This document shows, in pieces, positions 11,124 through 64,000 of a DNA stretch of 64,000 nucleotides. The stretch is from the IMG/VR virus record IMGVR_UViG_3300012923_000001, positions 6,389 through 70,388 of that record. One strand, 5' to 3'. This stretch comes from a virus. Positions within the stretch are counted from its first letter, which is position 1, and the number at the start of each line of letters is the position of its first letter. The translations under genes and the position numbers were made by a program. The notes beneath the pieces are model-generated. The model saw only the letters and a program-made list of their open reading frames with translations. It ran no database searches and had not been told where the DNA came from.

Positions 11124-11870
11124 TTGCCCTGTACTACACTGGCTCAATTAACCACAGAGACCTTGGCTGGGATCGGCTTCCCGGCCAAGGAGCTCTGTGA
11201 AGTCGAAGATGCGGCGCGGGCCGTCACTCACTCACTTGCACTTGCCAAGCAAGTCACAACTTTTTCCTCTCAAAACTTAGACTTCCGTAAGTATGAATGG
11301 AGTCCGTCAAGTAGAGATGAATCTCTCTTAAGCGCTCCTGATATCTCCGTTCCTGCGTGGGTGGAGAGGCAAGTTAGTACGGATGATTTCTGGAAGTTTG
11401 TGCCGACGTGTAATCTTGCGACACTGGAAGAGGCGAGAACGAGGGGAGAGTTTCGATGTGCGTTCTACGTTGAGAACGGACAACTGCGAATTCGGTTCTC
11501 TTATGACCCTCAAGATTTGGCGTATCCAAGCCATAGACTTTTTTATGATCCGAACCCGTGGCTAGCTGAAACATTGAACGACACCGCGCTAGATTCTCAG
11601 GCCACAGGCCTACCTGCCAATTTCTTTCCGATGATTTCCGGCATGGCTGAATTAGAGTTAATTCCAACCATGCGAATCAGAGCGGCAATGAACACCGAGA
11701 ATCCGGCAAGTCAGCAATTAATCGCCGCATGGACGGCGCGGGAGTCCTACTTACAAGGAAAGGTGGCCGCGTGGCGAGATCGGTTCCAGCACTATGCTTA
11801 TGGTTCGCGGGGAGCACGGAGAGGGCGGCGGAGACGTAACGTGTTAAGCAGAGGAGGAGCTAGCTGGTAG
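11124..11870 (+). CDS. Head-tail adaptor-like protein
   Basis: Position; TTLAQL-type N-terminus; Arg-rich C-terminus. Confidence 0.5.
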   Translation: MPCTTLAQLTTETLAGIGFPAKELCEVEDAARAVTHSLALAKQVTTFSSQNLDFRKYEWSPSSRDESLLSAPDISVPAWVERQVSTDDFWKFVPTCNLATLEEARTRGEFRCAFYVENGQLRIRFSYDPQDLAYPSHRLFYDPNPWLAETLNDTALDSQATGLPANFFPMISGMAELELIPTMRIRAAMNTENPASQQLIAAWTARESYLQGKVAAWRDRFQHYAYGSRGARRGRRRRNVLSRGGASW

Positions 11871-41580: not shown

Positions 41581-42183
41581 TCATTCCATTACCCTCTCAA
41601 AACGGAGTCCCTTTGGTTTGTCGGCCTGCGTCAAATGTCCAGGTTTGTTAATAGCGCGATCAAGGGCTTCGTCTAGTTCCCTTGCGGCGATTCTCTGCGG
41701 ACTGTAGTAGCTGCGGTCTTCTCGGTAGCCGCGATCTTTCAATGGCTTAGTAGACAAAGCGTCCGCTTCCTCGTTCTCAGCACGCGGAATCCAGGTAAAA
41801 GTTATTTGACTGTTTAGTTGTAAATCGAGAAGTCTGCGCGCTTCGTGATAGTAAAGTAGATAGCGCCGGGGCTTGATTGGAGATTTGCCGTTTCGTTCTT
41901 TTCTTGTGAGCGTTCCGGCTCTCCAAACTCCGCTCATTTGCTTTACGACCATATCGGAATCGCCGTAAATCTTCATTTCGCACTGACCTAATTCAAGTGC
42001 GAATTTCAGAACTGCAATTACTCCGCAGTATTCAGCAACGTTGTTCGTCGTGTTCTCGGTTCCGATGTACTCTGCGTGTTCAAACACTATCAAGCCGTCG
42101 AGTTTCACGATCGCGCCAGATGCCGCATGACCGTTAGGGTTCGGCCAACACGCCCCATCAAACCACGCTTCATATTGTCTCAA
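41581..42183 (-). CDS. rnhA: Ribonuclease HI
   Basis: WFDGAC.PNP...TNNVAEY...IYGDSDMVVKQM.G.W...WIPRAENEEADALS; GGAGG SD. Confidence 0.9.
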   Translation of the reverse strand: MRQYEAWFDGACWPNPNGHAASGAIVKLDGLIVFEHAEYIGTENTTNNVAEYCGVIAVLKFALELGQCEMKIYGDSDMVVKQMSGVWRAGTLTRKERNGKSPIKPRRYLLYYHEARRLLDLQLNSQITFTWIPRAENEEADALSTKPLKDRGYREDRSYYSPQRIAARELDEALDRAINKPGHLTQADKPKGLRFERVME

Positions 42184-42199
42184 GCCTCGCGCCTCCTAA

Positions 42200-42660
42200 C
42201 ATCTAACGAGCATCGAAGTAGCACAACGTTACTAGATTCGAGTGAGCAGAGTAAATCCACCGCTTTTTAACGGCAGATTCACACAAAAGTCGCCACTGAG
42301 TTCTCGTTTCGCTTTCGTGTTTATCCGAACCGGGTTTATCAGGAAACCAGCTTGACTCGCCAAGCGCCCGTTACCTTACCTGATATGGCCGACTCAGGGG
42401 ACGTGTTCAGGTTCCGCTGAATTAACGTGCTGTCGTTCGGAGCCTATGTATTAGACTGAAAGCGATGCCTAGCGGCTGTTTGTCCGCTTCCTCTCGCCTA
42501 CAGGCTGGCTTTACGCAGCTTCGTCGGCGAGGGCTTCAAACGGCCTAATACAATAAGCCACCCACGCACGGACGAGCTAGAATTTCGGTAACTCTCGTCA
42601 TATTTCAATTTGAAAGTTTGAGAGGGATTCTTTGGTAGGAATCTCAGACAAACTTTGAAC
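42200..42660 (-). ncRNA. Putative ~450-nt structured RNA or origin element
   Basis: No - strand ORF of 60 aa or more; at least eight inverted-repeat helices; promoter TTGACA-18-CATAGT at 42696-42667. Confidence 0.6.
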
Positions 42661-42666
42661 GTGGGC

Positions 42667-42715
42667 ACTATGCGCTCAAACGACTTGACTTGTCAACGAA
42701 ATTCTGTGGTATACT
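42667..42715. promoter_or_regulatory. Back-to-back promoters
   Basis: Minus strand TTGACA/CATAGT; plus strand TGGTATACT extended -10 at 42707-42715. Confidence 0.65.
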
Positions 42716-42721
42716 TTCATC

Positions 42722-42790
42722 CTCAGTCGGCGGGGCCAACCCGAAACTTTGAACACACCGAAAGGCCGTTAGGGAAACTTAACGGCCCGA
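42722..42790 (+). ncRNA. Putative ~70-nt trans-antisense small RNA
   Basis: Contains AAACTTTGAAC (42744-54), identical to 42650-60; ends in a 10-bp GAAA-loop hairpin at 42764-42787. Confidence 0.55.
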
Positions 42791-43258
42791 CGTGTCTAAG
42801 GGCTGAGCTTCTACCGCGCATCCGAGTCGCGCCCTTGCTTCTTGTCTTGTCGGGCCTCCGGGCTTCGCCTTGCATCCTTTAGCGAAGATCGGTTCTTTAC
42901 CTTGACATCTTCCGCAGAGCACAGCATCGGGTTTTGGTAGTTCGCAGACGGCGGCTCTAGCGGCCCTCTGTTTCGCGTATTTACTTTCTGGATCGGCTCC
43001 AAAGAAAAATATTCCACAGCGAGTTTGAAAATGGACGCGTGGAGATTTCATGCGTATCCAATAGCGCCCGTTATCGCCAAGCTGCCACCATTGAAGCTCC
43101 ATTATCAGAACTTCGTGAAGTAGCGTTCCATGTCTACGCCCGTAAACATATTTCGGATACTTCTTAGCGACCGTTCGCGCCCAATCCATGCCCTCACCTT
43201 GAAAGTCGGGACGCCCGACTGTGCGAATCTCACCGCCGATTTCGATAGTTTCAATCAT
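42779..43258 (-). CDS. Hypothetical protein
   Basis: 159 aa; ATGA overlap with the upstream gene. Confidence 0.6.
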   Translation of the reverse strand: MIETIEIGGEIRTVGRPDFQGEGMDWARTVAKKYPKYVYGRRHGTLLHEVLIMELQWWQLGDNGRYWIRMKSPRVHFQTRCGIFFFGADPESKYAKQRAARAAVCELPKPDAVLCGRCQGKEPIFAKGCKAKPGGPTRQEARARLGCAVEAQPLDTSGR

Positions 43259-43464
43259 GTCGCTAGAAAATATCGCTTCACTCTTTTCCCTGAAGGCAGC
43301 TTAAGCCACTCATCTTGTATCTTGTACCCAGCTTCTTTCAATTCAAAGATTCTGCCTCCGAGTCTCATGCAGCCAAAATCGTTCAAAGCTTCCATTGGGG
43401 TAATCTTTCGACCACTCTGCATGTACCTTAAGATTTGTTCATTCTGTGAATTTTGAGATTCCAT
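43255..43464 (-). CDS. Winged-helix (HTH_39-like) protein
   Basis: ILRYMQSGRKITPMEALNDFGCMRLGGRIFELK..GY.I. Confidence 0.8.
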   Translation of the reverse strand: MESQNSQNEQILRYMQSGRKITPMEALNDFGCMRLGGRIFELKEAGYKIQDEWLKLPSGKRVKRYFLAT

Positions 43465-46483: not shown

Positions 46484-47337
46484 GTTCCCCGCTCGGCGCA
46501 AATCTCTGCGGCCTTTTCCCTCTCGGTCGGGACGGATTGTGATTCTTTGACCGCCCTCTCCATCCTTGTCGCGTGTCCCTGTAAGCACGATGCACAGTCA
46601 GGTTTCATAACGCTGTGATAACAGTTGCCGACGTTGAAAAATGACGCGGCGTAGGTTTCAGCCGGGACGGTGGTACGGGCGTCAAGCAACTCCTTCGCTT
46701 CAATTAAGACATCAATGCAGTGCGTGCACATAGCACTTTGGCATTCAAGAATCTCGTCGATCTTTTGTAGCGTCGGTGCCGGCGCCAGTCCCTCCGCTTC
46801 CCCGTGTGACGAAGTGACGCGGCGTTCAGCAAGCCTTGCTAGTAGCTCATCCCGGCACTCGTTGGCCCGATCATGTTGTACTTTGCTTTGGGGATACATC
46901 ATGGCCCGCGCATGGCTTTCCAGTGCCAGCTCTACAAGTTCGCGGTCAATCATGTCGGTTGCGGGTAGTGGTTTAGTGGTCATCGTTTCTCCAATCGCTT
47001 AATTAGTTCTTTCGCGGCGTCATCTTCATTTGGGTCGTAGCCACGATTAGCGAGCACATCCAAGATCCCTTCCATGGTTTCCGATGAACTTGGCCCTGGT
47101 TCCCAGCCTTCACGATGGCCTGAGTGATAAGCGCGCAAGAGCCAGTAGATAAGAGTCTCGCGGTCGTCAAGTGTTTCTTCTTTCCCGTGCTTTCGACCTA
47201 CGGCGTAGTTTTCATTCGCCACTTTTACCAAGTCGGCATCGCTGATAGGATGAATGCGAAATGGACGATCAACTGCGCATCCTTCCCCTAGTGGTTGTTC
47301 AAAGTTGCTGTTATCTGTGGTCATTGGTGGGCCTCCA

Positions 47338-55752: not shown

Positions 55753-57626
55753 CTCTCGCCCCTTTCCTTCGCCAGTGCGGCACGTAATGAACGCTCACCG
55801 AAGTGTTGGTGATACTTTAAGCCAATACGTTCCGTTTCCCGCTTGCTGACATCCCATGATCCTACGACCACCTGTGCGGCCTCTATCACTTCCCCCTGCG
55901 CTGCGATGGTGGCAGCGGCAGCGCCGCAACCTACGTCATAGCCTGAGTGGAAAAAGTGTCGCCGTGGAGACAAAATGTGACGGTCGCTTGCCGACATGCT
56001 ATCCCATGCCGTTAACGTCTCTTGGAATGCGACCTCTTCCGCTTCTCGCTCAAAATCGTTCATACAACTAACTCCATTTCCGGCATTCCCATTCCCAGCC
56101 TAGATTTTAGGGACGCAATTCCTTCGTCAAGTGAAGCGCAGGGGATCGATATCTGTCCGTCGGCGCACCAGATTTTCATTGTGACGTTTGGATAGTCAAC
56201 GTTGTACTGATAAGTCGTGACTTCCAACTCAAATGACACATGGCGACCTGGAAACTCATCCCGCAGCCGTTCAAAGATTTGTAGTGGAGTCATGACGGTC
56301 ATTGGTTGGCCCTCCGCTTCGCTCGGCGCCGTTCCCGCCTCGCCTCAGCCTCCGCAAGTATCTTCGTTATTCGTTCTGGTTCACTTGGTTGGTTAATCGC
56401 CAAATAGTCAGCTGAACCGCCTTGCGTGGCCCGTTGATAAATCAGTATCACTGCCGCAGCATTGGCATCGTATCGTGCGTGTTTCTTCTTGCGTGTCATT
56501 TTGCGAATCATAAGTTACTCACTTTCTTCGATCCCAATTTCATCCAACGCCTCGGCCAAGTGCTCATCAGAATCAATGATTACGACGGCACCGAGCGCTT
56601 CCATTTCGTGAATGATTTCAATGATGCTCATGGCTGTTTTTTCCTTCCGCCAGCTTCTCAATTTCGTATCCTTCGATCCGGCACTTGATGCCCGATTCCA
56701 CGAACCGACCAAATATCGCTTGGCCGCTGGTATACGGAACGCATCCGAAACCGTTCTCGCATAGAAAGGTTCGATCCGCTTCAGACGATCCAACATTATA
56801 CAAACCGTCTTTAACTACGATCCGCTTGCCGGTAACATCTATCTTTAATTTGTTGCCCATCAGTCATCCTCCTCATCAAGTTCATCACCGTACTCATTGA
56901 CAATTTCTTTAGCGAGAGCGATCATCCCTCCACGATATTTAGTTTCGCTCTGGCTCAAGTCTGTATCGCTTGTAAATCGCGATATGTGTTTTCGAATCTG
57001 CAATAGCTCATGTTGCCCATTAGCCTTCGTCCTCCTCATCGTCAAGGTCGTCAAAGTCAGTGCCGCCGCATTTAGGGTAATGTCCCGCATTGGTTGCATC
57101 AGGATCGCCAATCCACCCGCAAGGCACTCATCGTTTCAGTCCATGCGTTGCAAATGTCCGGCGTAACCAGCACATTCCACTCTTCTGGGCGTGTATCACG
57201 AGCATTACGTAGCGCGGTCATCATGCGTTTAGCCGCCGCAACCAAATCGCCATGGGCCGCTACGAGTGAATCGTGGGCATTGACCGCCTTAAAAATCTCT
57301 TGTGCTCGCTCAGGCGTATCGCAGAAGGCGATTGCATGAACCGTGTGCCCAGTCGTTGCGTCGCACTGCTCAACCACGTGGTTGCGTACTTGGTAATGAG
57401 TTTCCATTTTCATTCTCCTTTTGAACTAACGCCGGCCGTGTCAGTGACGCCGATAGCATTAGCAAATTCAATGTGTGAGTTGACAACTTTCTCTATGCGC
57501 CACGGTGTCTCTGTATGTTTTGTCATCGGGTTTGTCCTTTTTCTTGGTCACTGTCCTGTAGTTTCTCAAAAGAAGTCATTGCCGTTTTCTCCCTTTTCAA
57601 AGTAAGTAAAAGCATCGAACTCGCTC

Positions 57627-57696
57627 ATACTAATCCTCATTGTTTCACTTGTCAAGCATTGTTTCACTTGCCAAGCAGTTATTTTCATGCTAGGAT
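57627..57696. promoter_or_regulatory. Divergent promoter switch with tandem 19-bp direct repeats
   Basis: Minus strand TTGACA-17-TAGTAT; plus strand TTGCCA-17-TAGGAT; CATTGTTTCACTTG(T/C)CAAG twice at 57638-57675. Confidence 0.8.
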
Positions 57697-57704
57697 CAGG
57701 GTCA

Positions 57705-59888: not shown

Positions 59889-61166
59889 ATGGCTACCCTA
59901 AATCTCGACAACTATTTGCCAAGCATATTCCGCAAACGTCCCGTCCCTCTTTCTGGCGATATCCCGATTGACGATCCGTCTAATGTCTTAGCGCCCATGC
60001 GAGGGGATGCGCCGGCTAGTGTGAACACTACCGATGCAGGAACAAACCTTGCGGCACCTGTTGACCTAGGCACTGCCGACACGGGAACGACGCGACCTCG
60101 ACGAGTTGAGACTGACGACAAAGGCCGTCCCATAGCCAATACGACGATGACCGGCGATGCTCAGGCCATCGATCTGAATCAACGTGTTCACGCTTACCAT
60201 CCGCAAGCCTCACAAGGTTGGTGGGACAAGTGGGGTAAGGAGATGGTCACTGGAGCGGTCAAGGGACTACGCTATGGGCCGGGAGGAGCATTAGGCGGGG
60301 CGATAGCTGGGGGAGTGCGAGGGGCGACTAATCCTGAGTTGGCAGATGAGCAGTGGAAGGACGAGCAGATCGCATCGTCTGATGCCGATGTTAAGAGGAT
60401 TGCTACTGGGCAACAACTCAAGACGAAGATGGCCCAAGAGGCGGCGGCGACCGATCTAGTTAAGGCCCGAACCGACGCACTGAAACACCCCGTACCTAAA
60501 CCGGGCCATCCAATTCTAACAGACCAAGGCTGGGCACTCCTCGACCCTGTAAGCGGAGTGATGAAGCCGGTAGTCGATCCTAAAACCGGACAGCAAGCCA
60601 AGGGAAAGCCATCTAACGCTAAGGAAGAATGGGTGCATGATCCTCAAGGTATCGCCCACAAGTATGAGAACGGTAAAGACACCGGCCAACTCGATTCGGG
60701 GCGTAACCTGAAAGTCGTACCGGGTTATGGATTGGTTCAGCCGGGGCAGGCGATGAATGCTGACGCTCTTGCCGTTCAACGTGAAGAAGCCCGAACCGAA
60801 AAGGCCGGTCAAGCGAATCTGACTAACGCTCAGTTGGATGCAAATATTAAGTCTGCTCAGGATGAACAGGGCCGGTTAGGGGCTGCTCCTCCAATGACGG
60901 TCGATAAGGTTGACGCACTTGGTAATACGGTCAAAGAACGTAACCCATTTTATGAAGACTGGTCACATCGTTATAACGAGTTGGAAGATCAGAAGCGAAG
61001 ATGGGCGGCAGAGAAGAAGGCCGCACCGACTCTTAAATCTAACGTCTCGCCAACTCCGTCTACGCATCAATTAGTAAAATCTGAATGGCTTAAGTCTCAT
61101 CCTGAAAGTGATTGGCCCAAAGCGGTAAGGACAGCCAAGACCGCAGGCTACACAATTGTTGAATGA
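59889..61166 (+). CDS. Putative internal virion/ejection protein
   Basis: Glycine zipper GPGGALGGAIAGG, coiled coils, P/Q/K-rich; TATAGT 8 nt upstream. Confidence 0.55.
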   Translation: MATLNLDNYLPSIFRKRPVPLSGDIPIDDPSNVLAPMRGDAPASVNTTDAGTNLAAPVDLGTADTGTTRPRRVETDDKGRPIANTTMTGDAQAIDLNQRVHAYHPQASQGWWDKWGKEMVTGAVKGLRYGPGGALGGAIAGGVRGATNPELADEQWKDEQIASSDADVKRIATGQQLKTKMAQEAAATDLVKARTDALKHPVPKPGHPILTDQGWALLDPVSGVMKPVVDPKTGQQAKGKPSNAKEEWVHDPQGIAHKYENGKDTGQLDSGRNLKVVPGYGLVQPGQAMNADALAVQREEARTEKAGQANLTNAQLDANIKSAQDEQGRLGAAPPMTVDKVDALGNTVKERNPFYEDWSHRYNELEDQKRRWAAEKKAAPTLKSNVSPTPSTHQLVKSEWLKSHPESDWPKAVRTAKTAGYTIVE

Positions 61167-64000
61167 GCACTCAAGAGCAGGATATTCGTCCGTCTCTAAC
61201 TCCGCCGCCGTCTGTAGCGGATGGCGATATTCTTTCTGGCGGGTTAATGTCAAAAATACCCGACATCCTCTCCGGTGGTTTGACACCAAAGCAATCAGAC
61301 GCATCGACGGCATGGAACCTCGATCAGTCTGCTTCAAAGGTGAAAGACTGGTATCGCCAGCAATTTAATGAAGACCTGCCTATTCATGTTTATGGTCTTG
61401 ATGCGGGCCATAAAGCGATGGGATTTAAATATCACGATGCTGTGGACGTAGGACTAGCACCAAGTAGTCCGCGTGGTCGGGCACTCAAAAGTTATCTACA
61501 GTCTGAGGGAATGCCGTTTAGTGCGTGGGATGGCCCGGCTAAGAACAAGGCCGGTCAAGTAATTTCAACTGGGACGCATTTTCATATTGGGCCACCTGGA
61601 TCGCGAACGCGCACAGGGCCGATAGCTCAACCTGATTCAATTCTTAGTGGTGGATTGGTTGCTAAACAAGCATCTGCCGTACTGTCTGAGCCTGACGTTC
61701 TACCTGCTCCGGCGAATCAAGGCGGAACCATTAGACCGCGCACCGTTACGCAACAGCCTAAGTCTTACGATACTCCGTTGTCATCACAAGAAGAGGCGGC
61801 ATTCCAGCAATGGAAACAGCAATACGCGCCAAACGATACAGGTGAAGACTACGATCTTCGCGGCGCATTCAAAGCGGGCTTGACGCCTGATCCCAAAACG
61901 AGCCACTGGCCTGATACTTTTAAGAAGCCAAACCATCCGACGTTTAGCAATGAAAGTCAGTATGCGACCGGGCCCGATGCTGCGAAGGCAGGACGATGGG
62001 AAGGCGACAAGTTTGTTCCGCCGCTTGCAACCGCTCAACCAAATGACATGGAATTCGGCGGCATGTCACCCGCCGAGAAGATGGCTTACACTCGGGCTCA
62101 AAACACTCCCAACGCAATAGACAACTTTTCTCGCATTGCAATGGCCTCGATGGCCGCACAGAGACAGCAAGCGGCGCGTAGGGCGGCACTACAACAGAAG
62201 GTTGCCCAAGCACGGACGGCGATGGCAAAAACTAACCCTTTAGGTAATGTTACTGCCGGCGCGAAAGGTGAAAGCACGCTTGTGCCTGGAATGGGCGGCC
62301 CTCCGGTTCTGCAAACTCCGCATGTGGTGGCGAGGCAGGCAGCGCAGTCACGGCAGACTAAAGCCGAGCAGCAGTTCAATCAGATTATCAGTGAAGAGCA
62401 GAACCGTACGGTACTACCAGGCGATCCATCGCTTGAAGAGAGGATCGCGACCAGGACAGGTCAGCGCGTGCTGACTGTGCGCGATCAGGTACGCCGTCAA
62501 CTCAAAAATGAAGGTACACTTGGGAGAATCGAAACGTGGATGGCCGATCCGTTTGGCCCGTTTACCAAGTCTCGCGAACAGATGACGGAAGAGGATATCA
62601 ACCGCCGAGTTGACGCTATTGCTCAAGCGGGTACGCCTGAAATGCTGGCTGAGCGTAAGGATTGGGGCACACAGCCTGCCGGACTTAGGGCCGTTTTACA
62701 ACCGGCAGCACGCGCAGGAGCGGGCCTCATCAGGACAATAGCAGGATTGAGTGCTTTTGGTGGATTAGCACCGAATGAGGGCAGTGATTATTTGAACGAG
62801 CGCGCGCAATTTCTTGAGCAAGGTACGATTAACAGCCCATTGACACCTGAAGGCAAGGAAATCGTTCGCGGACTGCCTGAAAAGGGTGTAGCTGCGGCCT
62901 TGGATCTGGGTTTCACCGTTACAGAGATTATTGCCCTCAAAAAAGCGACAGGGTTGCCACTCGGACAACTGTTAGCTGCCGAAACCGTACTGAAGACAAA
63001 CAATCTACCAGCGAGCGAGCGAGCACCCAAGGTAGCGTTAGCGTATTTGAATGGCAAAGTCTTAGATACCGAACTATCCCGTCCCGCAAGTGCCGCAATC
63101 TTTGGTGGCCCGACTGCGATACAAAGCGGACTATCTGTTGCTCAAGGTCACATGACGGTTGCGGATGCTCTGCTACAAACCGGAGTCCAGGCCGGAGCGG
63201 GCGCGATTCTCGGTGGTGGCGGTGCTCGTGAACTATCTCGCGGCGCTTTGGAGTATACGGTTAAGAGTCCGCTAACTCCTGAGCCCGTCCGAGACGTAGT
63301 TGCGAACGTAATGGACTATGGCAAGGGATTAGTGAAGTCTGAGGATGGCCGGAATCTTTCCCTGTACGTTGATAAGGACACGGGAAGAGTCTTTGGCAAT
63401 GAACTCACCCCAGATCAGGCTAAGAATTACGATCCAAGTATCGTTACCGGCGAGAAGCGACCAGTTAGAAATACCAACACAGTTTCAGGGACTGAATACG
63501 ATCAGTTAGCACGAGCGTTGAATATCGAGACGAAGACGCCAGCGAAACAGATTGAGGGGCCGCAAGTTGAAACGGCGGTTGAAAAGAATGTAACGCCATT
63601 AGCACAGAGAGGTAGAGATGAAGCACAAATTAACCGCGCGACAGATCAAGAAGATGCGTCCGCTGGTAGTGGAGCGCCGAGAAACGCGGCAGGCATACAA
63701 GAACCTAACGCGAATCAACCAAATGTGCTACGAGCGAGAAGTGGACAGGGAGATGTTGAGCCAACTGTTTGGGTTGCCCCAGAAGCTGTCGCTAGTGCAG
63801 CGGATATATCCGAACCCGTTCGGCATGTAGACCTTCAACCCCGAACCCCAGAAGGCCAGTTCGACGAAGAAACTCCCGCACAGGCCGAAGCGCGAAGACA
63901 ACAAGTAGCGTCTAGTGCCGTCCCTCAGCCTGATCTAAGCACTCAGGCTTCCCAGTCCGGGGCTTCTATTCCTTTTATGGTAACTCGCTCTATGCGAGCA
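61163..64000 (+). CDS. Large multidomain internal virion protein, 3'-truncated (absent from the ORF track because it has no stop)
   Basis: ATGA overlap; frame open at all spot checks through to SIPFMVTRSMRA; H..AVDV...HFHIG and HWPDTFKKPNHPTFSNESQY motifs. Confidence 0.75.
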   Translation, partial: MSTQEQDIRPSLTPPPSVADGDILSGGLMSKIPDILSGGLTPKQSDASTAWNLDQSASKVKDWYRQQFNEDLPIHVYGLDAGHKAMGFKYHDAVDVGLAPSSPRGRALKSYLQSEGMPFSAWDGPAKNKAGQVISTGTHFHIGPPGSRTRTGPIAQPDSILSGGLVAKQASAVLSEPDVLPAPANQGGTIRPRTVTQQPKSYDTPLSSQEEAAFQQWKQQYAPNDTGEDYDLRGAFKAGLTPDPKTSHWPDTFKKPNHPTFSNESQYATGPDAAKAGRWEGDKFVPPLATAQPNDMEFGGMSPAEKMAYTRAQNTPNAIDNFSRIAMASMAAQRQQAARRAALQQKVAQARTAMAKTNPLGNVTAGAKGESTLVPGMGGPPVLQTPHVVARQAAQSRQTKAEQQFNQIISEEQNRTVLPGDPSLEERIATRTGQRVLTVRDQVRRQLKNEGTLGRIETWMADPFGPFTKSREQMTEEDINRRVDAIAQAGTPEMLAERKDWGTQPAGLRAVLQPAARAGAGLIRTIAGLSAFGGLAPNEGSDYLNERAQFLEQGTINSPLTPEGKEIVRGLPEKGVAAALDLGFTVTEIIALKKATGLPLGQLLAAETVLKTNNLPASERAPKVALAYLNGKVLDTELSRPASAAIFGGPTAIQSGLSVAQGHMTVADALLQTGVQAGAGAILGGGGARELSRGALEYTVKSPLTPEPVRDVVANVMDYGKGLVKSEDGRNLSLYVDKDTGRVFGNELTPDQAKNYDPSIVTGEKRPVRNTNTVSGTEYDQLARALNIETKTPAKQIEGPQVETAVEKNVTPLAQRGRDEAQINRATDQEDASAGSGAPRNAAGIQEPNANQPNVLRARSGQGDVEPTVWVAPEAVASAADISEPVRHVDLQPRTPEGQFDEETPAQAEARRQQVASSAVPQPDLSTQASQSGASIPFMVTRSMRA

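Follow-up and report, generated by a model that had tools for sequence, protein, structure and literature searches.

A covarying structured RNA with a putative divergent antisense partner in uncultured soil phages

Plasmid ColE1 initiates replication with no initiator protein: its ~550-nt primer, RNA II, is cut by RNase HI and is blocked at the 5' end by antisense RNA I, which is encoded inside the primer region and is fully complementary to ~100 nt of the primer 5' end. Few large RNAs combine dense covariation with invariant loops, and those found to date have often proved to be ribozymes, assemblies, or new types of regulator. Two such large RNAs, GOLLD and ROOL, are associated with phages and prophages. 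In the type I toxin-antitoxin pairs tisB-istR-1, zor-orz, shoB-ohsC, and dinQ-agrB, a divergent small RNA has 18-21 nt of complementarity to the leader, according to PMC4147584. PMC7157519 describes non-RepA cluster A mycobacteriophage prophages in which a region of ~400-500 nt expressing a non-coding RNA is needed; these origins adjoin parABS in temperate, plasmid-like prophages.

The locus described here lies within the window (the whole 64,000-nt stretch of viral DNA that was analysed), where a predicted structured RNA of ~440 nt, common to a few uncultured soil phages, occupies a gap before an RNase HI gene. It resembles ColE1 in that a long structured RNA has its own promoter and a predicted small antisense RNA that would target its 5' end, and RNase H, the processing enzyme of ColE1, is encoded by the gene adjoining the RNA in three of eight loci. 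However, the antisense RNA would be divergent and non-overlapping, with complementarity of 11-16 nt derived from a direct repeat. There is also no sequence or Rfam similarity to ColE1 and no G-rich hybrid-forming stretch, and the setting is a 70-kb phage without lysogeny genes.

Judged by sequence, the locus is also like the type I toxin-antitoxin pairs in having a putative divergent small RNA that would match 11-16 nt within a long structured 5' leader, at a distance from the ribosome-binding site. In place of a small hydrophobic toxin ORF, which we did not find here, RNase HI, DUF559, or a zinc-binding protein is encoded downstream; moreover, the leader holds a ~370-nt core that covaries as RNA, and given the indels in the alignment no small ORF is conserved across this core. 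The likeness to the non-RepA mycobacteriophages consists in a phage non-coding transcribed region of ~400-500 nt in a genome with no initiator gene, whereas in five records of the present phages no ParA, ParB, or integrase was found, and blastn found no match in 50,697 isolate phage records. With GOLLD and ROOL the RNA shares a length of several hundred nucleotides, many covarying helices, and invariant loops; it differs in matching neither of their Rfam models, in being smaller, and in having a putative dedicated antisense partner.

Table 1. Features of the RNA locus, in coordinates of the window
Feature	Position	Strand	Basis or description
RNase HI gene	41581..42183	-	TTG start; AGGAGG 8 nt upstream; PF13456 and PF00075 matches
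Structured core	42224..42601	-	nhmmer and covariance-model matches in 8 loci; 364-381 nt in relatives
Core helix P1	42599-94/42576-71	-	covariation
Core junction helix	42534-32/42469-67	-	
Core helix P3	42531-27/42497-93	-	covariation
Core helix P4	42488-84/42475-71	-	covariation
Core helix P5b	42420-14/42400-394	-	covariation
Core helix P6	42441-35/42330-24	-	covariation
Core helix P7	42385-79/42343-37	-	covariation
Core helix P8	42365-61/42354-50	-	sequence differs, pairing kept in every locus having P8
Core helix P9	42282-71/42262-51	-	
Candidate pseudoknots of core	42592-87/42375-70 and 42570-66/42430-26	-	
5' hairpin P0	42613..42656	-	outer stem AAAGUUUG/CAAACUUU, inner stem GAUUC/GAAUC; leader folding
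Box 2, first 11 nt of predicted long RNA	42650..42660	-	exact repeat; leader folds
Sense promoter TTGACA-18-CATAGT	42667..42696	-	promoter scan; sigma-70-type
Opposite-strand promoter candidate	42690..42715	+	TTGTCA (42690-42695), 14-nt spacer, extended -10 TGGTATACT (42707-42715); pattern match
Predicted antisense RNA, ~75-85 nt	42722..42795	+	ends inferred from promoter, box 1 complement, and hairpin
Box 1, upstream copy of GTTCAAAGTTT	42744..42754	-	exact match; complement would lie in antisense RNA
Terminator-like hairpin, 8-bp stem GGCCGTTA/TAACGGCC	42764..42787		overlaps stop codon of 159-aa ORF; proposed end of antisense RNA

The product of the gene downstream of the RNA (Table 1) matched PF13456 (2.4e-12) and PF00075 (1.5e-10), and residues D9, E51, D75, and D141 were invariant among 29 homologues, which confirms the RNase HI assignment of the original prediction. 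The gene starts 49 nt 3' of a conserved ...GAATCTA block, which we chose as the marker for the 3' end of the core, and a terminator scan of the window identified no terminator-like site between core and gene. The non-coding gap between a 159-aa ORF and the RNase HI gene is 600 nt long, with the minus-strand promoter inside. Only frames of 56, 43, and 37 aa overlap the gap, none spanning it, and the gap sequences of relatives differ by indels of 1, 3, 4, and 7 nt, in keeping with the earlier claim that no ORF covers the transcript. A tRNA/tmRNA scan of the sequence found none. The second gene upstream in the window encodes a winged-helix protein (PF14090), and tandem repeats occur at another promoter of the same phage (57.65-57.69 kb). 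The size of the gap in front of other RNase H genes was too noisy to serve as a measure.

Based on the promoter scan, TTGACA-18-CATAGT is the sole promoter-like site in 42100-42900, an interval in which shuffled sequences averaged 0.3 sites; the minus-strand promoter first proposed thus stands, and equivalent TTGACA-17-TAAATT sites were flagged in L164 and L165. From its 5' end, the predicted transcript comprises a ~45-nt gate hairpin, then a linker rich in A, and finally a multi-helix core of 364-381 nt. Folding predicted a two-part 5' hairpin in all six leaders folded, with a different sequence in each. In the leader fold of the window, the GUUCA of box 2 is unpaired, and the other nucleotides of the box supply the 5' side of the first hairpin.

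The 11-mer GTTCAAAGTTT occurs in exactly two copies, box 1 and box 2, both on the minus strand. The direct repeat is present in 7/7 loci with 5' sequence, in letters specific to each phage and at a spacing of 85-94 nt, so the 11-nt match that had been noted in the window is exact there and the repeat is maintained in relatives. Box 1 fitted its own box 2 best in six of seven rows, with one tie, and in a duplex comparison the cognate box duplex was best or tied best in five of six columns. In L163, the two box differences are transitions; a 10-of-10 antisense duplex is kept through G-U pairing, and the cognate duplex is predicted at -24.1 kcal/mol.

On the opposite strand, TGnTAnnnT was found in six of the seven loci and occupies the same place in L162, L163, L164, L165, and L176; L082 carries TAGTAAGGT. 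The strict promoter scan flagged an antisense promoter in L163 alone among the six loci scanned (TTGAAA-17-TAGACT with TG). Antisense-oriented terminators were flagged in two of six (L162 and L164), at the same place as the window hairpin, which has a weak T-tract on the antisense side and was left unflagged by the terminator scan. The divergent antisense RNA of the original prediction fits the conserved repeat and extended -10; the low yield of the strict promoter and terminator scans counts against it. Conservation of the repeat, with an extended -10 on the opposite strand between its copies and a hairpin resembling a terminator beside them, makes it plausible that a small RNA with complementarity to the first 11-16 nt of the long RNA is transcribed divergently.

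No relatives were identified by scanning viral contigs with the single RNase H protein or the single 159-aa ORF protein; they were recovered when the scans used alignments instead. Using nhmmer and a covariance model, we identified the core in eight loci (the window, L082, L083, L162-L165, and L176). In run X5, one soil contig aligns over 42224-42601 alone and has dissimilar sequence on either side, which marks the core as a module with sharp boundaries; both the flanks and the adjacent genes vary from phage to phage. A 5'-domain covariance model searched over 95 of ~177 sources found nothing beyond the eight known loci, and L084 is therefore not a detectable core homologue.

Six of the eight loci have an ORF whose start lies 8-49 nt beyond the core; it encodes RNase HI in three, a DUF559 endonuclease in two, and a zinc-binding domain protein in one. 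In L163 and L176, no ORF of at least 50 aa starts within 120 nt of the core, and the cassette heads an operon and adjoins divergent genes. Terminator scans of the window and relatives identified no terminator or recognisable processing site at the core 3' end; because of this and the closely following ORFs in six loci, the RNA probably heads a longer transcript. The DNA immediately 3' of the core is not conserved, and no protein or regulator gene neighbours the RNA in all loci within the available flanks. The proposed linkage between the RNA and rnhA did not hold in relatives: the RNase HI gene directly follows the RNA in three of eight loci, is probably encoded on the opposite strand ~4.6 kb from it in one contig, and was absent from four contigs (two complete and two partial), with the window's own genome serving as positive control.

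Of the 95 pairs that RNAalifold predicted, 30 showed compensatory changes, in a sample of 7-8 sequences representing ~4-5 lineages. At 47 well-aligned pairs, 98.7% of cells pair, compared with 89.3% in shuffles (0/500 reached 98.7%) and only 27-44% when partners were slid. Compensatory changes on both sides occurred at 14 pairs versus 1-3 in the slid controls; the check for covariation in relatives was thus positive. Two other soil runs, X4 and X5, contributed four compensatory double changes (42436/42329, 42435/42330, 42487/42472, and 42361/42354); a change at 42326 in one X5 contig would break a P6 pair whose partner position falls outside that contig. In P5b, P6, and P8, sequence varies while pairing holds in every locus having them, and these helices were left out of the formal pair count because the MAFFT register shifts there. 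At several pairs G-U alternates with A-U or G-C, and the minus strand is therefore the folded strand. Single-sequence folding gave a z of -1.47, with 1 of 20 shuffles as good, which is within chance; the evidence for the predicted structure is comparative and does not come from the single-sequence fold.

At an overall identity of 57-59%, the core contains invariant 20-nt stretches. It also has long invariant unpaired stretches, which suggest a tertiary fold rather than a primer. A long-range helix between the 5' GGAUCG and the 3' tail, proposed by RNAalifold, was rejected; an A-to-C change in the window disrupts it, and the local hairpin P1 compensates for that change. Relatives do not conserve the palindromes that lie between the AGAACUCA block and P9.

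The original prediction drew nine pairings from the window, and all are complementary in sequence. Six are kept with covariation (42613-20/42649-56, 42571-76/42594-99, 42493-98/42526-31, 42471-75/42484-88, 42324-30/42435-41, and 42337-43/42379-85), and a seventh (42447-54/42545-52) is kept in the closest relatives only, where all four helix changes are wobble-compatible. The other two are not conserved: in place of 42406-10/42417-21 a different hairpin (P5b) covaries, and 3/8 relatives lack the 5' partner segment of the crossing pair 42296-301/42392-97.

Searches of Rfam 15 with the window at the gathering threshold returned no matches, those with the region at E up to 10 returned only two 14-15-bit matches, both to animal lncRNA models, and those with five relatives at E up to 1 returned nothing over the RNA. 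A resemblance to RNase P RNA was discarded, since none of the RNase P models gave a match at a threshold as loose as E 10. Using blastn at E up to 1, we found no match of the region or core in 72,556 plasmid records. A pattern scan of genome contigs gave eight matches, each ~30 nt without further similarity, and hence no prophage copy or host; a pattern from the 3' block with CGTTG gave none. On comparative grounds (a conserved core, covarying helices, and several independent contigs), this is a previously unclassified RNA family. A new large class of non-coding RNA, offered initially as the alternative, fits better than a ColE1-like origin does.

We favour, with a probability of roughly 0.45, a new phage RNA family that acts as folded RNA and is gated by antisense. 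The strong sigma-70-type promoter would start a ~440-nt transcript of gate hairpin, A-rich linker, and core, and the back-to-back plus-strand promoter would make a short RNA ending at the terminator-like hairpin. As box 1 is a direct copy of the first 11-16 nt of the long RNA, the short RNA would carry the complement of those nucleotides; it would dock at the very 5' end, on the GUUCA that is invariant and unpaired, and would invade the gate hairpin. Docking would then alter how stable the long RNA is or how it is processed or folded, and hence the expression of the co-transcribed genes. Control in cis of its own transcript is the more likely output. Against such a switch, the downstream ORFs differ among loci, with none close in L163 and L176, and in the window the antisense promoter has a spacer of only 14 nt and the hairpin a weak T-tract. 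Moreover, cis-regulatory RNAs of such size with invariant loops are unusual; RNAs of this kind are more often ribozymes or stand-alone RNAs. The RNA sits in a phage group whose replication no recognisable gene explains, and its candidate roles are an RNA-gated operon switch of a new kind, a novel functional RNA, or an RNA-only origin. The phage-specific 11-16-nt "address" common to the 5' end and the putative divergent partner RNA offers an experimental handle.

It is possible, if doubtful, that the RNA instead acts in trans as a stand-alone molecule (a ribozyme, a ribonucleoprotein part, a host-factor decoy, or a self-assembling "ornate" RNA) cut from its transcript, the proximity of ORFs being incidental. 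The sharp bounds of the core amid variable flanks and genes are consistent with this, as are the invariant stretches at low overall identity, the two loci without a close downstream ORF, and the retention of the RNA's own promoter even within a co-directional gene block. Large ornate RNAs are also known in GOLLD and ROOL, as reported in 10.1101/2024.12.08.627333. However, a molecule cut from its transcript is difficult to reconcile with a 3' end that has no terminator or recognisable processing site and with an ORF within 49 nt in six of eight loci, and no partner protein co-occurs within the available flanks.

The ColE1-type RNA-primed origin of the original prediction is unlikely. It would require a persistent hybrid near the 3' end of the RNA, cutting by a phage or host RNase H, extension by a host polymerase, and an antisense RNA that sets the frequency. 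The promoter-driven structured RNA with an antisense partner aimed at its 5' end would suit such an origin, as would RNase HI directly downstream in three loci. In three complete genomes we found none of PolA, PolB, DnaB_C, Prim-Pol, Toprim_2, D5_N, and AAA_25, in line with the earlier remark that no complete initiator, primase, or polymerase is seen; large unassigned ORFs have no family match (for a 393-aa ORF, the best ESM Atlas score was 0.77). Phage RNA-based origins exist, as in the non-RepA mycobacteriophage prophages described in PMC7157519. However, RNase H is missing from two complete and two partial relatives, and a fifth contig probably encodes it at a distance and on the opposite strand. 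The antisense RNA would be encoded outside the primer, with only 11-16 nt of complementarity. GC skew within the core lies between -0.01 and 0.08 and does not change at the RNA site, and the core contains no stretch of more than four Gs. Immediately downstream of the core, at the place where synthesis would begin, the DNA lacks conservation, with ORFs 8-49 nt away, and the blastn searches gave no similarity to plasmid replicons or isolate phages. No ParB_N, CbiA-type ParA, or tyrosine integrase was found in five records, and the analogy to plasmid prophages therefore does not apply. The long invariant unpaired stretches likewise point away from a primer.

A broader form of the origin proposal is that these 67-73-kb phages, in which no polymerase, helicase, primase, initiator, or lysogeny gene is recognisable, replicate from the RNA alone, acting as a folded primer or origin RNA with a divergent antisense RNA, and that some lineages added RNase HI or a nicking endonuclease downstream. 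We regard this as improbable; if true, such an RNA-only replication start would give phages an equivalent of RNA-primed plasmid replication that had been assembled from unrelated components.

Another possibility is that proteins bind the repeats. It is rather improbable that the boxes are operators for a DNA-binding protein acting on back-to-back promoters, with the "antisense RNA" being the mere start of a divergent transcript. Two copies do flank a divergent promoter pair at a fairly constant spacing (85-94 bp), the winged-helix gene and the use of tandem repeats at the phage's other promoter are in line with operators, and an opposite-strand transcript would run into the divergent genes in L163 and L176. 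Nevertheless, an RNA hairpin uses box 2 as its 5' strand, and because the 3' strand covaries with it, box 2 is constrained at the RNA level. The transitions in L163 preserve the antisense duplex, the 85- and 88-bp spacings do not share the helical phase of the 94-bp one, and no regulator gene is common to the loci. The operator question concerns the switch and not the core, and it is compatible with any reading of the latter.

A protein-coding gene or chance complementarity, to which the overlapping 56-aa and 43-aa frames, the clustering between loci of spurious ORFs over the core, and the weak single-sequence z might point, was refuted by the covariation test, within the reach of the tools used: covariation far exceeds the shuffled and slid controls, the conserved core contains gaps of 1, 4, and 7 nt, and its invariant runs of at least 20 bases show no third-position pattern.

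The supplements of PMC10690425 list 8,495 unnamed candidate RNAs from IMG/VR, and the present RNA may already be among them.

The RNA encoded ahead of the RNase HI gene is real, structured and unclassified. The virus record (70,388 nt, with terminal repeats of 123 nt), of which the window spans bases 6389-70388, carries structural genes on the + strand and a long block of small genes on the - strand, where the 159-aa ORF is followed by a gap of ~600 nt and then by RNase HI. An ORF scan bore out the original prediction that no ORF spans this gap.

We searched viral and metagenome contigs with 29 aligned RNase H homologues, none of which departs from the four catalytic acidic residues. Among 160 RNase H loci, nhmmer matched the gap sequence in just L082 and L083, immediately upstream of RNase H in both. 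Patterns built from invariant blocks identified five further IMG/VR loci (L162, L163, L164, L165 and L176), all confirmed by nhmmer and again with a 5'-domain covariance model searched against 95 of about 177 sources; eight pattern matches in genome_contigs, each ~30 nt, were rejected as chance. Blastn found no match in 50,697 phage records or 72,556 plasmid records, and the Rfam comparison proposed earlier came back empty in Rfam 15 for the window and for five relatives. A 1,118-nt contig from soil run X5 aligned to 42224-42601 only (27 differences, 7 gaps), its flanks being dissimilar to the window, and in a contig from X4, a run labelled seawater metagenome, similarity ended at 42604; what is conserved is thus a core of 364-381 nt with sharp boundaries.

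Features of the RNA locus and of related loci (window positions unless a locus is named)
Feature	Position	Strand	Remark
159-aa ORF	42779-43258	-	no family match
Box 1	42744-42754	-	GTTCAAAGTTT, exact
Sense promoter	42696-42667	-	TTGACA-18-CATAGT
Box 2	42650-42660	-	GTTCAAAGTTT, exact
Core	42601-42224	-	
P5b loop	42401-42413	-	UGAACA
RNase HI	41581-42183	-	PF13456 2.4e-12, PF00075 1.5e-10, PHROG 531
One-mismatch GTTCAAAGTTT copies	43381-43391, 47297-47307, 56269-56279	+	
One-mismatch GTTCAAAGTTT copy	11569-11579	-	
Stretch matched in run X3	42749-42801		159-aa ORF end and hairpin
Tandem CAAGTGAAACAATG repeats	57640-57700		14-nt unit
2,580-aa ORF	61163-64000		continues across genome ends
DUF559 genes	L164:3-590, L165:1444-1941		Vsr-like endonuclease fold
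Similar layout in L084	L084:3400-4000		
Stretch common to L084 and L002	L002:3846-3945		

Single-sequence folding of the window RNA was no better than chance (z -1.47), so all structural evidence is comparative. Across five sequences, RNAalifold predicted 95 pairs, with compensatory changes in 30. The formal count covered seven named helices in register under MAFFT (47 pairs, seven sequences); P5b, P6 and P8 were excluded because the register shifts there. Paired cells amounted to 98.7%, compared with 89.3% after shuffling (none of 500 shuffles reached the observed value) and 27-44% with slid partners, and both-side changes occurred in 14 of 47 pairs, compared with 6.6 and 1-3, respectively. 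The core helices thus covary in relatives beyond both controls, as the original prediction had proposed to check. All nine pairings that it listed are complementary in the window; covariation confirmed six, one is confined to the closest relatives, and two (42406-10/42417-21 and the crossing pair) are unconserved. Based on per-sequence duplexes and folds, the excluded helices appear in every locus having the segment, with a different sequence each time (P6 strands by locus: UCCGAAC/GUUCGGA, UCCAGA/UCUGGA, CUUGGA/UCCAAG, CUCGGAG/CUCCGAG and CCUGGAG/CUCCGGG).

Natural variants carried compensatory double changes at 42436/42329, 42435/42330 and 42361/42354 (X5) and at 42487/42472 (X4), and the alignment of L176 reads as adding new kinds of pair to P3, P9 and the junction helix. 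For long-range contacts there are only two candidates: P1 loop-GGUAA(C/A), with a single compensatory change, a single wobble and a single mismatch (the same mismatch, by reading, in L176), and CGUGC-GCACG, with wobble changes only. Judged from the aligned sequences, the alternation of G-U with A-U or G-C places the fold on the window's - strand, as predicted, and gaps of 1, 4 and 7 nt together with runs of invariant bases argue against a coding core.

The predicted sense promoter was recovered as the sole promoter-like site within 42100-42900, and the 11-mer GTTCAAAGTTT has exactly two exact copies in the window. In all seven loci with 5' sequence, the first bases after the -10 element match sequence 85-94 nt upstream; this direct repeat opens with GTTCA (GTTCG in L082), after which comes an extension specific to each phage. 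A locus's own box 2, the copy at the RNA's predicted 5' end, is the best match to its upstream copy, box 1, in six of seven rows, with one tie. Box 2 doubles as the 5' strand of a hairpin whose 3' strand covaries with it, and the fold leaves GUUCA unpaired at the extreme end. On the opposite strand between the boxes, TGnTAnnnT occurs in 6/7 loci, and a strict scan flags it as a promoter in L163 only. Past box 1 lies a hairpin that the scan calls a terminator, in antisense orientation, in L162 and L164; by reading only, the hairpin has a T-rich tail on the antisense side in L082, L163, L165 and L176, and this tail is weak in the window. The cognate antisense-leader duplex is predicted to be best or tied-best in 5/6 columns. 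From these sequence features, a divergent partner RNA very probably targets the 5' end of the long RNA. Upstream genes are divergent in L163 and L176, so an opposite-strand transcript there would head a divergent operon as its leader. The boxes could instead be protein operators, a doubtful alternative that concerns the switch only and is compatible with any reading of the core.

PMC4147584 describes, for tisB-istR-1 and similar loci, antisense RNAs that are encoded divergently and complementary to a long leader over a short stretch; the arrangement predicted here is alike in both respects, but the RNA locus lacks a toxin ORF. We tentatively favor an antisense-gated folded RNA heading its own transcript as the most likely reading (probability roughly 0.45). 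The ORF after the core encodes RNase HI in three loci, a DUF559 endonuclease in two and a zinc-binding domain protein in one; in the other two, no ORF of at least 50 aa begins within 120 nt. The DUF559 genes start 8 nt from the core end with no obvious ribosome-binding site. A stand-alone trans-acting RNA ranks second, and we consider it unlikely.

Less likely still is the ColE1-like, RNA-primed origin of the original prediction. Its statement on the absence of visible replication genes holds: three complete phage genomes (G000, G001 and G002; 67-73 kb) lack detectable PolA, PolB, DnaB_C, Prim-Pol, Toprim_2, D5_N and AAA_25, so an RNA-primed origin retains some probability, and the mycobacteriophage prophages of PMC7157519 are a phage precedent for an RNA-based origin. 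These genomes also lack integrase, ParB and CbiA-type ParA, and given both sets of absences, these phages look non-temperate. The features open to testing do not favor such an origin, however. The expected linkage to rnhA failed, as RNase H directly follows the core in just 3/8 loci. L176 has an RNase H (41% identical) on the other strand, ~4.6 kb off, a placement that we infer from a terminal-repeat overlap with the locus L016; a profile and two Pfam models, with the window's own genome as positive control, found none in the remaining four contigs, two of them complete. In addition, the predicted antisense does not overlap its target, a G-rich stretch is absent, DNA 3' of the core is unconserved, skew is unchanged at the site, and plasmid replicons are dissimilar.

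Several other observations concern the boxes and the surrounding genome. Allowing one mismatch, GTTCAAAGTTT has 6 matches against 1.5 expected, an excess that alone is not significant; three of the four one-mismatch copies are placed so that - strand mRNAs would bear sequence complementary to the 5' end of the long RNA. The P5b loop has UGAACA in all five loci with the hairpin; this motif, also found in the predicted antisense RNA, is complementary to the invariant GUUCA at the RNA 5' end and could form an internal contact competing with the antisense.

L084, another locus, whose RNase H is 54% identical, shares the layout of repeated GTTCAGC boxes, promoter, opposite-strand TGCTATACT and 5' hairpin. 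The hairpin is followed by ~430 nt of non-coding sequence that differs from the core, with no relation to it by nhmmer or covariance model; the final ~100 nt are common to L002, again directly before RNase H. The stretch may be a second RNA occupying the same slot.

The 2,580-aa ORF, which crosses the genome ends through the terminal repeat, has no Pfam or PHROG match for its first 945 aa, and a similar giant ORF (1,942 aa) adjoins the RNA cassette in L176. The CAAGTGAAACAATG repeats lie over a TTGACA-type promoter near a small opposite-strand ORF, and the site looks like an operator-promoter heading the - strand gene block. Two contigs of run X3 (1.3 kb each; depth 232x and 87x) match the window solely at the end of the 159-aa ORF and the hairpin there, over 41-53 nt with 1-2 letter differences and dissimilar flanks; this stretch may represent a short element, or a terminator, of wide occurrence.
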